Assembly (NCBI GenBank): GCA_016390365.1
Contig: GCA_016390365.1_3043.1
Length of the DNA: 64,000 bases
Source of the DNA: a phage
Strand: one strand, 5' to 3'
Part shown: piece by piece, positions 6,437 through 58,890 of the stretch
How positions within the stretch are numbered: position 1 is the stretch's first letter
Layout of the letters: every line of letters starts with the position of its first letter
Notes under the pieces: generated by a model
The model's database searches: none
Told to the model about the DNA's origin: nothing
The model's input: only the letters and a program-made list of their open reading frames with translations
Program-made: the position numbers and the translations under genes

Positions 6437-6639
6437 GCCAAACTAGTATTCTTAAAAATGCCCACTGTGAAAAGTGTAAGTGGCCTGTTGTTTTTGCTTT
6501 ATGTAATGATGAAATGGCTTGTGATTTCGATTATTGGTGCTATTGTTCTAATAAAGGATGCATCAATCATAAAGGTGAAGGATTTTATTCAGGATTTTAT
6601 CCTTATCCTGATTTCGTTAAAGAAGGTAAACCGAAATGA
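6412..6639 (+). CDS. hypothetical Cys-rich small protein
   Basis: CEKCKW...CNDEMACDFDYWCYCSNKGC, likely metal-binding. Confidence 0.4.
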   Translation: MLKGYMVMSQTSILKNAHCEKCKWPVVFALCNDEMACDFDYWCYCSNKGCINHKGEGFYSGFYPYPDFVKEGKPK

Positions 6640-8559: not shown

Positions 8560-8595
8560 ACCAGTTTACTTTCAATTTGAGCTGTGATACTATAC
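8560..8595 (+). promoter_or_regulatory. early promoter
   Basis: gtttac 8564-8569, 17-bp spacer, tgtgatactat. Confidence 0.5.
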
Positions 8596-12319: not shown

Positions 12320-12387
12320 AATTGTTTACAAGCATAAAGCTTTATGGTACTATACAACTATCAACTGATACGGATTTGGAGAATAAA
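12320..12387 (+). promoter_or_regulatory. early promoter plus conserved leader (PeSL-like cassette)
   Basis: gtttac 12324-12329; TGGTACTATACAACTATCAACT core; leader GATTTGGAGAATAAAATG shared with 38697..38745. Confidence 0.55.
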
Positions 12388-13356
12388 ATGAAAACTGTAA
12401 CTATCAATAAGGGTATTTACTTCGGTAAAGAAATCTCTGGAACTTTTGAGCTCTTAGGCGAATGGTTCCCAGATAATGCTCCAGTAGATGCACAAGGAGA
12501 TGGTAAAGTTTTTGTTGAAATTGACGGTAAACGTCGCGGTGTTTGGGTTTACAAATCAGACATTTCATATGATGGTGTAAAAGTTGAAGAAGTTAAAGAA
12601 TCGTATGAAGATATGAAAACCCGCATTAATAAAAGATTTAATGTTATGGGAATGATGACGAATGGTATTATTAACGGAAACATTCGTTCATTAATTATCT
12701 CTGGTGCGGCAGGCATTGGTAAAACGTATTCTTTAGATAAAGCTTTAAATAAAGCAAATGATATTGGATACATTGAATATAAAAGCATTAATGGTAAAAT
12801 CTCTGGTATTGGTCTTTATGAACAGCTTTGGAATAATCGTGAAGAGAATTCTGTCCTTTTGATTGATGATGTGGATGTTTTCTCTGATATGGACATTCTT
12901 AATCTTCTGAAAGCTGCTCTGGACACCGGAGAGACCCGTAAAGTCTGCTGGAGCACTGCGTCTTCTTACTTAGAAGAAAAAGGCATTGAGCGTGAGTTTG
13001 AATTTAAAGGAACGATTGTTTTTATCACAAACGTTGACATTGACCGCGAATTAGACCGTGGTACTAAACTTGCTCCACATTTACAAGCATTAGTGTCCCG
13101 CTCAGTTTATTTGGATTTGGGTGTTCACACTAATGAAGAAATTATGGTCAGGGTTGAAGATGTTATTCTTTCAACTGACATGATGCAAAAGCGCGGTCTT
13201 TCTGATGAAGAAACTTATAAAGCATTATCATGGATGAAAGTTAATGTTAATCGTTTACGCAATGTTTCACTGCGTACTGCTCTTTATCTTGCTGACTTTA
13301 TTATGACCGACAAAAACGGTTGGGAAGAAATTGCTGAGGTTACTCTTCTGAAATAA
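12388..13356 (+). CDS. AAA+/P-loop ATPase
   Basis: Walker A ISGAAGIGKT, Walker B VLLIDDVD, sensor-like FITN; start ATG 12388. Confidence 0.6.
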   Translation: MKTVTINKGIYFGKEISGTFELLGEWFPDNAPVDAQGDGKVFVEIDGKRRGVWVYKSDISYDGVKVEEVKESYEDMKTRINKRFNVMGMMTNGIINGNIRSLIISGAAGIGKTYSLDKALNKANDIGYIEYKSINGKISGIGLYEQLWNNREENSVLLIDDVDVFSDMDILNLLKAALDTGETRKVCWSTASSYLEEKGIEREFEFKGTIVFITNVDIDRELDRGTKLAPHLQALVSRSVYLDLGVHTNEEIMVRVEDVILSTDMMQKRGLSDEETYKALSWMKVNVNRLRNVSLRTALYLADFIMTDKNGWEEIAEVTLLK

Positions 13357-38671: not shown

Positions 38672-38742
38672 AACTGTTTACATCCCTGTTCTTCCATGGT
38701 ACTATACAACTATCAACTACTGATACAGATTTGGAGAATAAA
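38672..38742 (+). promoter_or_regulatory. early promoter plus conserved leader (PeSL-like cassette)
   Basis: gtttac 38676-38681; core TGGTACTATACAACTATCAACT and leader GATTTGGAGAATAAAATGAAAA shared with 12345..12392. Confidence 0.55.
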
Positions 38743-38979
38743 ATGAAAATTGTTATGGGATGCTTAGCAGTTTGTTTAGTTGCATTAGCAGCAGTTCCAT
38801 TTGTTAGTGTTGAAAATGATACTCAACCTGTGATTGAATCTAGCACTGTTATTCACACTAATGGTAAAATATCAGTTAAAATTGATGATAATCTTCATGC
38901 GAATACAAATGGATCTTTAGGTGTGCAAATGGGTAATACCTGCATAAGCACTACTGGAGTAATTACTACTTGCATTTGA
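38743..38979 (+). CDS. hypothetical secreted small protein
   Basis: start ATG 38743; signal peptide MKIVMGCLAVCLVALAAVPFVSV. Confidence 0.5.
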   Translation: MKIVMGCLAVCLVALAAVPFVSVENDTQPVIESSTVIHTNGKISVKIDDNLHANTNGSLGVQMGNTCISTTGVITTCI

Positions 38980-57336: not shown

Positions 57337-57374
57337 TAGTTTACAAACTCTTGGGACCAGAGTATAATGGTCCT
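57337..57374 (+). promoter_or_regulatory. early promoter with stem-loop around -10
   Basis: gtttac 57339-57344; inverted repeat ggacca/tggtcc flanks agtataat. Confidence 0.55.
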
Positions 57375-57412
57375 GTGGAGTATAAAATCTTTTTAACAAG
57401 TGAGAGATAATT

Positions 57413-57904
57413 ATGAATATTAATATCGGTGAAATTGCTCGTGTATCTGATAAATCCCGTTCTAAAGCAGCAGGAAAATTGGTCGAAGTTGTAAGCATTC
57501 AGCTTAAACACGGTGTTAAAGATGAAGATTCTGAAGTAAAAGTACGTATCATTGCTAAAGATGGAATGTCTAAGCCCCAGTTTGGTTATGTTCGATGGAA
57601 ATTTCTTGAGCCTGCGTTTTTGAAAGCTGTTCCTGCTAAAGGAATTGAAACGATTGATACTTCGCATGTAGGTGTAGACTTTAAGTGGAAACTTGGTCAA
57701 GCTATCAAGTTCATTGCTCCTTATGAGTTTGAATTTACCGAAGGTGGACAACCACTTCCTCGGCGTACTCGCGCTATGTGTGCATACATTACTGATCAAT
57801 GGGTAGAAGATGGCGTTAAGTTATACAACGCGGTATTTTTAGGAACATACAAAGTCATTCCTGAAAGTTGGATTAAACACTATAGCAAAGCTCGCTATGC
57901 ATAA
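57413..57904 (+). CDS. motB: MotB (modifier of transcription B)
   Basis: 163 aa; position dexA-x-x-motB-cef-goF as recalled; sequence consistent with recalled T4 MotB. Confidence 0.7.
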   Translation: MNINIGEIARVSDKSRSKAAGKLVEVVSIQLKHGVKDEDSEVKVRIIAKDGMSKPQFGYVRWKFLEPAFLKAVPAKGIETIDTSHVGVDFKWKLGQAIKFIAPYEFEFTEGGQPLPRRTRAMCAYITDQWVEDGVKLYNAVFLGTYKVIPESWIKHYSKARYA

Positions 57905-57934
57905 AGTTTAAAATTTTTTCATAAAACTATATAC

Positions 57935-58004
57935 ATCAGTAGTTGATTATGGTACTATATCAATATCAACTACTGATATAGAAAATAATTTGGAGAATAA
58001 AATG
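57935..58004 (+). repeat. PeSL-like cassette with 13-bp perfect inverted repeat and orphan start
   Basis: atcagtagttgat ... atcaactactgat flank tatggtactatat; leader TTTGGAGAATAAAATG followed by only an 11-codon ORF. Confidence 0.55.
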
Positions 58005-58076
58005 GAAAATTTGCCAAAGGTGCTGCTACTCTTCTGAAACGCATCGCTCCAATGTTCAATTAACGAGGAAATTGTA

Positions 58077-58292
58077 ATGAAACGTAAAATTGTTCAGAAC
58101 TGCACTAATGACGAATTTGAAGATGTGTTATTCGATCCAGATTTGGTAGTAGTTCAAAAGGAACACACTGCTAAGTTTACTCACTTGACTTCGGTTTATG
58201 TGTATGAAAAGGTTGGGGATAAACAACCAATTTACGGTGTATTTCGTGAAATCACTGAAGATGGTACAACTTACTGGAAGGAAATTTATTAA
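58077..58292 (+). CDS. hypothetical protein (cef position)
   Basis: 71 aa; synteny suggests cef, unverified. Confidence 0.45.
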
Positions 58293-58711
58293 TGGCTATT
58301 AAATTTGAAGTTAATAAATGGTATCAATTTAAAAATAAACAAGCTCAAGAAAATTTTATTAAAGACCATACTGATAACGGAATCTATGCGCGGCGTTTAG
58401 GTATGGAACCTTTTAAAGTTATAGATATTGACCATCTTGGTCGTCCTACTAAAATTGTGACATCTACTGGAAGATTGGCGTTATCCTCCGGTAAAGATAT
58501 TTTGGATGAAGATTTTATTTGGCTTTCAACGAGCGAAGCTGAGTTCTTTAATGAAGTGGAAAATCCATATCAGGCAGCTGAAGAACAAGAGCAGGAAGAG
58601 CAAGAACAAATAGAAGATTTCACAGAATTCCCGATCATGAAAGTTACTATTGAAAATAATGAACAAGCATGGTCCTTGTATCAGATGTTGAAAGCACACT
58701 TTAAGGAATAA
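58292..58711 (+). CDS. hypothetical acidic protein (goF position)
   Basis: 139 aa with [10 protein letters not shown] tract; synteny suggests goF, unverified. Confidence 0.45.
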
Positions 58712-58713
58712 TT

Positions 58714-58890
58714 ATGCCAATGTATGATTATAAATGCCAATCCGAAGATTGCGGGCATGAATATGAAAAAATTAAAAAGATTTCTGAACGAGAAAATGAT
58801 GTTTGCCCTAAATGTCATCGTCTGTCTACTCGTCGGCCTTCTGCTCCTAAGCATGTGAATGGTGGATTTTACGACTTACTTAAAGGGTAA
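58714..58890 (+). CDS. FmdB-family zinc-ribbon small protein
   Basis: MPMYDYKCQSEDCGHEYE...CPKCH matches the MPxYxYxCxxCG zinc-ribbon pattern; not in track. Confidence 0.45.
   Translation: MPMYDYKCQSEDCGHEYEKIKKISERENDVCPKCHRLSTRRPSAPKHVNGGFYDLLKG

Follow-up and report, generated by a model that had tools for sequence, protein, structure and literature searches.

The spacer between motB and cef in the 64-kb stretch of phage DNA analysed here (the window) in all likelihood holds a T4-type early cassette of the PeSL kind which once expressed an 89-amino-acid (aa) gene. A 208-bp deletion between direct repeats has reduced this gene to a pseudo-ORF, with the hairpin-promoter in front of it being kept and the remaining mini-ORF probably having no function. 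PeSLs are the promoter-early stem-loop cassettes of T4-like phages (Arbiol et al. 2010, PMC2839356; Comeau et al. 2014, PMC4122927). The phage belongs to Tequatrovirus (T4-like), and positions 57400-58720 are 99.9% identical to Escherichia phage VEc20. The same region is matched by 647 phage records, most of which are 90-95% identical across the surrounding 1.3 kb. In the window the spacer measures 172 bp, and it is bordered and filled by the following genes and gene remains:

57413-57904, plus strand: motB, the upstream gene, 163 aa, from the ORF list (Pfam PF17613, E 6e-94).
58002-58037, plus strand: mini-ORF of 11 codons, MENLPKVLLLF, and its stop; the start of the lost gene joined out of frame to its 3' end.
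58007-58063, plus strand: 3' remnant of the 89-aa gene, 18 codons (KFAKGAATLLKRIAPMFN) and a stop, which can be read only in frame +2, counted from the ATG.
58065-58292 with its Shine-Dalgarno (ORF 58077-58292), plus strand: cef, the first intact gene now downstream of the promoter (Pfam PF24050, E 3e-35).

An earlier note on this DNA had proposed comparing the motB-cef region with that of relatives in search of an inserted gene. A nucleotide search with the intact region found an 89-aa ORF (hereafter ORF89) intact at the same ATG in 261 of 507 related records, which is the opposite of relatives sharing the same spacer without any insert. In JK1, Sf24 and L009 (an IMG/VR contig) the same promoter, hairpin, leader and ATG are present, the latter opening an ORF that runs from MENLIIIEQSF to KFAKGAATLLKRIAPLFN and a stop. 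Relative to these three, exactly 208 bp are absent from the window, the missing segment being bounded by the direct repeats ATGGAAAATTT and ATGTAAAATTT (11 bp, 10 of 11 positions identical in Sf24, with starts 208 bp apart in intact alleles), and the junction falls within 58002-58012 (ATGGAAAATTT). Codons 4-72 were removed and the frame was shifted, while the first three codons are still in frame. Since three does not divide 208, the start became fused out of frame to the tail, giving the 11-codon ORF that the note had correctly described after the leader (ATG at 58002, TGA at 58035-58037, with cef and a Shine-Dalgarno of its own beyond). In the +2 frame the remnant reads GKFAKGAATLLKRIAPMFN up to its stop. 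The remaining records, including reference T4, PST, RB32 and the closest relatives of the window, carry the same deletion, and in all eight deleted alleles that were read the junction is common to within one base of an A-run. In reference T4 the same stump is found at NC_000866 6483-6652, with the hairpin arms at 6582-6594 and 6612-6624. Of the two histories that the note had offered, a cassette whose cargo gene was lost is the one borne out, 208 bp of a gene present in the relatives being gone from the window. A gene not yet acquired is excluded by the last 18 codons and stop that survive out of frame at 58007-58063.

This also bears on the reading in which the promoter cassette never had a gene and the relatives inserted the 89-aa ORF later. 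In other T4-like genera, whose cef is 53-68% identical, an early promoter lies directly before cef with no gene between, so that the empty promoter-cef arrangement is probably ancestral at a deeper level. Within this spacer, the same reading has to account for 57 bp of the ORF C-terminus kept with a stop in one frame and the first three codons kept in another, and for a missing segment that is not a multiple of three and is bounded in intact alleles by 11-bp direct repeats. An insertion would need to build one continuous ORF from pre-existing ends, and we consider an empty acceptor site to be barely credible.

The mini-ORF differs between the deleted alleles, which read MENLPKVLLLF, MENSLKVLILF, MENLPKVLLLFF, MDNSLKVR and MEIR (the latter followed directly by a stop in Lutter and L008). 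Its length is 11, 12, 8 or 4 codons, and a peptide that ranges over 4-12 codons is not a conserved one. Indels of +3 and +2 bp are present in the remnant among the same alleles, and in PST the Shine-Dalgarno of the mini-ORF is mutated from GGAG to GAAG. As judged from these alleles, a regulatory element that is conserved is followed by a pseudogene in decay, and the mini-ORF appears functionless. The earlier note had also raised a leader peptide, which these variable sequences, lengths and the PST mutation do not support. A functional leader peptide or uORF regulating cef by its own translation could draw on the strong Shine-Dalgarno and ATG (GGAGAATAAAATG) placed within the cef leader, and on RegB sites at the putative Shine-Dalgarnos of very small T4 ORFs, which the legend of Figure 3 in PMC1702504 mentions. 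Besides the variation in length and sequence, the remnant indels and the lost PST Shine-Dalgarno, such a role has against it that 40 nt separate the stop from the cef ATG, which leaves no translational coupling, and that half of the relatives use this start codon for an 89-aa protein. It is therefore regarded as highly improbable. Short hypothetical proteins are annotated over the promoter and remnant in two records: one of 37 aa on the plus strand of Lutter (L024, 752-865) and one of 48 aa on the minus strand of Pinarejo (L025, 710-856). Both are almost certainly gene-calling artefacts, and the short ORFs called in this spacer should be read as artefacts of annotation.

The lost gene itself matches phrog_3720 (function unknown; E 2e-46), and ORF89 had no sequence match in Pfam, NCBIfam or PDB. 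With 95% identity as the lower bound, a protein search returned the same 261 intact copies, those of T2, RB51, RB18 and RB3 among them, and a full-length homologue of about 42% identity is found in some 140 Klebsiella/Raoultella T4-like phages, which shows ORF89 to be a real, long-lived protein gene. Its presence/absence polymorphism marks a dispensable accessory gene. In Klebsiella phage KPV15 (L032, 706-1779) the homologue lies downstream of a tRNA cluster, in a context unlike that of Tequatrovirus. It is preceded there by a promoter starting with GTTTACATCAGTAGT, which has the spacer segment TCAGTAGT and the leader GGAGAATAAAATG in common with the window element. Given these common segments, promoter and gene seem to move as a unit, in line with the PeSL-plus-ORFan idea; folding of the KPV15 promoter gave no hairpin (z 0.2). 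The homologue adjoins a tRNA cluster in Jiaodavirus, and in Tequatrovirus the gene adjoins cef, a modifier of phage tRNA processing. A tRNA-related function is possible, to the extent that such a neighbourhood gives a hint.

The part of the spacer upstream of the remnant is occupied by the regulatory element, the features of which are:

57905-57929, plus strand: AT-rich, UP-element-like region AGTTTAAAATTTTTTCATAAAACTA; 88% A+T in the 25 nt before the -35; aligns with the copies at 12.3 kb and 38.7 kb.
57930-57935, plus strand: -35 hexamer TATACA; 5/6 matches to the T4/PST PeSL consensus TTTACW; aligns with GTTTACA of the sister promoters.
57935-57947, plus strand: left arm of the inverted repeat, ATCAGTAGTTGAT; within the -35/-10 spacer and untranscribed from the predicted promoter.
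57950-57958, plus strand: extended -10 in the loop of the hairpin, reading TGgTACTAT; separated from the -35 by 17 bp.
57965-57977, plus strand: right arm, ATCAACTACTGAT; first 13 nt of the predicted transcript, the start being inferred from its spacing to the -10.
57992-58002, plus strand: GGAGAATAAAA, Shine-Dalgarno of the lost gene and putative RegB/S1 site; exact match to the 11-nt consensus GGAGAAUAAAA.

From this arrangement we infer a T4-type early promoter with a predicted start at about 57965, where the right arm begins; in T4 this corresponds to about position 6594 of NC_000866, complement strand. The T4/PST PeSL consensus is TTTACW-N17-TAYWAT (Comeau et al. 2014, PMC4122927), and T4 early promoters consist of an UP region, a -35 GTTTAC, TGn and a -10 (Hinton 2010, PMC2988021; Nolan 2006, PMC1524935). 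The sequence TGGTACTAT is found identically at the sister promoters at 12325, 13764 and 38677. Two of these, at 12325 and 38677, are built as AAAATTTTTTCACAAAA-GTTTACA-N17-TGGTACTAT-...ATCAACT(ACT)GATAC.GA-TTTGGAGAATAAAATG, and both precede real ORFs. The element aligns with them column for column over the UP region, -35, 17-bp spacer, TGn and -10. Common to it and these copies at 12.3 kb and 38.7 kb are the UP region, the -10 and a leader of about 40 nt which includes an identical 16-mer. A generic sigma70 scan did not call the site (8/12 hexamer matches), and among public records no promoter is marked here in T4 GenBank/RefSeq, which annotate none, or in the promoter-annotated Lutter record. 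The note's description as a PeSL-like cassette holds for every sequence-level feature of the class. The promoter reads TATACA-N17-TACTAT with TGn, its -10 fitting TAYWAT and its -35 matching at 5/6 positions; the 25 nt upstream are 88% A+T; a perfect 13-bp stem straddles the -10 (-21.1 kcal/mol, z -5.7); and a GGAG...ATG opens ORF89 in 261 relatives. The element is intergenic, in a region with indels and an alternative upstream module (in Sf24), and similar copies stand at 12.3 kb and 38.7 kb. Excision between two flanking PeSLs, which would place the end points in these PeSLs and leave a single chimeric one with no stump of the gene, is not how the cargo was lost: the end points found here are 11-bp direct repeats inside the ORF, and both gene ends remain. 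A scan of IMG/VR for the element returned five contigs only, all of which were already in the comparison set. Sf24 (L022, 1078-1500) carries an extra MotB-like paralogue of 139 aa between motB and the cassette, and homology to the window restarts exactly at the stop codon/AT-rich edge of the cassette, behind a different upstream gene. This break looks like a module breakpoint at the PeSL border, as the sequence of a module boundary would give.

The inverted repeat reported in the earlier note between motB and cef is confirmed as a perfect one of 13 bp, ATCAACTACTGAT being the exact reverse complement of ATCAGTAGTTGAT. The 13-nt spacer given there was too short: the arms are separated by 17 nt (TATGGTACTATATCAAT), of which only the first 13 nt had been quoted. 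At the 38.7 kb copy, too, the -10 is followed by the right-arm 13-mer. Counting perfect inverted repeats with arms of 13 bp or longer and a loop of 3-30 nt gives two in the window, against a mean of 0.07 in 30 dinucleotide shuffles, and chance can therefore be set aside as the source of the repeat. The only other one, at 1392-1431 (TTGCCACGTGTTT / AAACACGTGGCAA), has the same layout, with an extended -10-like TGGTATAGT in its loop. As RNA, the hairpin folds at -21.1 kcal/mol (z = -5.7), and 0/200 shuffles fold as well. Because the predicted transcript starts only with the right arm, the left arm being part of the -35/-10 spacer, the hairpin can fold only in RNA that reads through from motB; the predicted primary transcript is unstructured (z -0.06). 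Such read-through transcripts from motB, whose own early promoter (TTTACA-17-TATAAT) starts at 57340, would include the entire hairpin. Most likely, by analogy with what has been claimed for PeSL stem-loops, it would serve as a 3'-end barrier or attenuator for motB transcripts. A search of Rfam 15 gave a match at chance level only (21 bits, the gathering score being 65; E 0.44). A replication origin was considered for the site and rejected, as oriA of T4 is near soc and not at the motB-cef locus.

The arm-loop-arm segment of 43 bp is 100% identical in 480 of 492 records, a count obtained with a 45-nt query that is blind to a flip of the loop, since an arm, a reverse-complemented loop and an arm together equal the normal element on the other strand. 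Over the 1.3 kb around this segment most records reach no more than 90-95% identity. With the deleted alleles aligned, 2 of 48 columns vary in the core from -35 to right arm, versus 12 of 64 in the remnant, and both variable core columns stem from the record of a mutant T4 clone. The promoter-hairpin part thus appears to have been kept by selection, and the near-invariance of the 43 bp could in part reflect gene conversion from the sister promoter copies rather than selection at this site. The clone in question (583L, MZ375356; L002, 830-860) has two 2-bp deletions relative to reference T4, one before the -35 and one in the hairpin loop, which may be genuine changes in the clone or else errors made in sequencing through TA repeats. 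A loop shorter by 2 nt in "T4" was rejected as a variant, as it comes from this clone, and the loop of reference T4 has 17 nt like that of the window.

The hairpin could instead be mainly a terminator or 3' stabiliser of motB, with no active promoter and cef served by read-through or by other promoters. It begins 31 nt after the motB stop codon, PeSL stem-loops have terminated transcription in a reporter (PMC2839356), the -35 is imperfect, and generic scans and annotations miss the promoter. The GC-rich stem and U-tract of an intrinsic terminator were not found, and no terminator was called at the site: 4 of the 13 pairs are G-C, and the tail is AUAUAGAAAAUAAUUU. The AT-rich stem and the missing U-tract argue against termination as the main role, and so do the UP region, -35, 17-bp spacer, TGn and -10 that align base for base with sister promoters preceding genes, the invariance of the -10 in the loop over about 490 genomes, and a single natural inversion of the loop that regenerates an extended -10 at the same position. 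On balance, we find a promoterless terminator unlikely.

The inversion just mentioned is that of Pinarejo (PP925831), where 737-779 corresponds to 57935-57977 of the window and the 17-nt loop is flipped to ATTGATATAGTACCATA, the reverse complement of TATGGTACTATATCAAT. The flipped loop gives the extended -10 TGaTATAGT at the same position, and with a longer query against 507 records the flip was found in Pinarejo only; a rare inversion by template switching or an error of assembly would explain it. This case, together with a repeat that is perfect and near-invariant, could speak for a 43-bp palindrome acting as DNA, be it by binding a dimeric protein as its operator, by promoting transcription symmetrically in both directions or by being a hotspot of recombination or inversion. 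The bottom strand also reads the extended -10 TGaTATAGT, from which transcription would start about 18 bp away from the top-strand start. Its -35 is poor (TCTATA), and the flip, found in 1 of 507 records, may be no more than the rare mutation or assembly error named above. Arm sequences differ at the same place in other genera, which fits a structure better than a fixed protein site, and at two of their loci (L017 and L013) some stem positions pair only as G-U, favoring RNA over DNA pairing. Taken together, these points make a palindrome acting as DNA very unlikely. A related reading, to which we give only a small chance, takes the arm-loop-arm as an orientation-independent and possibly bidirectional promoter module, or one with a DNA-level function, its invariance reflecting selection for symmetry or for cruciform formation or recombination and not for an RNA hairpin. 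If a bidirectional module were true, both transcripts would begin with the same 13 nt.

The comparison with other genera was based on separate folds of nine cef loci. Strict column-wise covariation of the stem was inapplicable; the stems there are centred 2-3 nt differently relative to the -10, which makes them positional analogues and not one alignable helix. Seven of the nine gave a stem of unlike sequence that spans the -10 (z from -3 to -6), examples being GGTGTAGG/CCTACACC, GGTAGGAGC/GCTCCTACC and AGGGCTAT/ATAGCCCT. The stem of L010 (GGTCTAT/ATAGACC) is weak (z -1.3), and L021 has no stem straddling the -10. At this most distant cef locus (IMGVR_UViG_2706795719_000001, about 1395-1440) there is a hairpin, AAAAAGAGGT...ACCTCTTTT, that overlaps the -35; with a T-run after it, this is a stem of the terminator type. 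Within the window itself, about 12 early promoters have the same layout, with an inverted repeat straddling the -10. Their -35 starts include 4372, 13764 and 56224, and also 1269, 9377, 44396, 51027 and 57340. In at least three of them (4372, 13764, 56224) the 3' arm includes the Shine-Dalgarno of the downstream gene. By analogy with e, soc and 49, read-through RNA would hide the ribosome-binding site (RBS) of such genes and promoter-proximal RNA would expose it. In promoters of a second class, at 8565, 12325, 24338, 38590 and 48914, the -35 is closely preceded by a GC-rich terminator of the canonical kind, complete with its T-run.

The conserved leader TTTGGAGAATAAAATG, which the earlier note had placed 3' of the repeat, is present at 57989-58004, and the exact 16-mer occurs three times in the window. 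Durand et al. (2006, PMC1702504) give GGAGAAUAAAA as the optimal RegB/S1 cleavage sequence in T4, stated there as required for efficient cleavage, with GGAGRAYARAA as its general form, in a study covering all intergenic GGAG sites of T4. A Shine-Dalgarno that doubles as a RegB site, as in early mRNAs, accounts for the conservation of the leader. The window holds three matches to GGAGRAYARAA against 0.39 expected, and an 11-nt site in single-stranded RNA, as RegB/S1 cleavage calls for, is found here both in the sequence and in the predicted lack of structure (z -0.06). Three perfect consensus sites (GGAGAATAAAA) are present in the 64 kb, at 12378-12388, 38733-38743 and 57992-58002, all in one early promoter-leader subfamily sharing about 90 nt. 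Their sequence suggests exchange or gene conversion among the copies.

According to the proposed history, the PeSL would originally have expressed an early accessory gene of 89 aa (phrog_3720) between motB and cef, and the deletion between ATGGAAAATTT and ATGTAAAATTT gutted this gene in the window phage, T4, PST, RB32 and about half of the sequenced Tequatrovirus. The leftover, an 11-codon pseudo-ORF and 18 out-of-frame C-terminal codons, is now decaying. Host sigma70 RNA polymerase is predicted to start at about 57965 from the AT-rich region, TATACA, 17 bp and TGgTACTAT. The product would be a proximal early transcript for cef-goF-39.2, with an unstructured leader carrying the perfect RegB/S1 site GGAGAAUAAAA. 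The phage endonuclease RegB would presumably cut this leader, thereby inactivating or destabilising the transcript. RNA reading through from motB, which alone has both arms, would fold the -21 kcal/mol hairpin and, in the role assigned to PeSL stem-loops, could form a 3'-end barrier or attenuator insulating the upstream unit. Translation of cef has its own Shine-Dalgarno, GAGGAA at 58065-58070, before the ATG at 58077.

For the annotation of these genomes, this means that the "empty" motB-cef spacer of 170 bp in T4, which is also present in about half of its close relatives, is a predicted promoter cassette together with the stump of a gene kept by T2, RB51 and many others. It is a clean natural example of a PeSL cargo lost by an ordinary short-repeat deletion while the regulatory cassette was kept, presumably because it now feeds cef-goF. 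The element is of a known kind, the published PeSL class, and the understanding of T4 gene regulation is unchanged by it.

When compared with known systems, the predicted promoter is like T4 early promoters in its AT-rich UP region, 17-bp spacer, TGn extended -10 and place before an early gene cluster, and differs from them in its -35 (ATATACA here, GTTTACA there). With the RegB/S1 targets in T4 early mRNAs, as presented in PMC1702504, the leader shares an 11/11 match to the consensus and the overlap with a Shine-Dalgarno that most known sites show. The difference is that the ORF to which this Shine-Dalgarno belongs is dead; cleavage would hit the leader of cef instead of inactivating the RBS of a gene. 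The T4 genes e, soc, 49 and I-TevI (reviewed in PMC3014915) also have a promoter inside a hairpin, which is folded by the long upstream RNA, the RNA from the proximal promoter lacking the 5' arm. Those genes have a late inner promoter and a helix that holds the Shine-Dalgarno or AUG sequestered, whereas the strong helix of the window ends at 57977, 14 nt before the GGAG that begins at 57992. Sequestration of the RBS was not found here beyond a weak 7-bp pairing of the U-run with GGAGAA, seen in the minimum-energy fold and absent from the centroid.

Short-homology deletions and quasipalindrome template switching are known from T4 rII genetics (Albertini 1982 and Singer 1982 are cited in the PeSL literature). 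The 208-bp deletion, lying exactly between direct repeats identical at 10 of 11 positions, is of the former type with nothing unusual about it, and the Pinarejo loop inversion between perfect arms resembles the latter. The closest likeness in overall make-up is to the PeSLs, composites of about 100 bp which consist of an AT-rich region, a sigma70-like early promoter with a 17-bp spacer, a stem-loop, a Shine-Dalgarno and an ATG. They occupy intergenic, variable regions before accessory ORFs of unknown function and have highly similar copies elsewhere in the genome; a stem overlapping the -10 is one of their five published sub-classes (PMC2839356). The published PST/T4 stems lie just upstream of the promoter, while the one described here straddles the -10, and it is AT-rich without a U-tract, not of the G(n)...C(n) type. 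Unlike a cargo removed by PeSL-PeSL recombination, the one at motB-cef was lost via an internal microhomology deletion, and the cassette survives with the stump of its gene.
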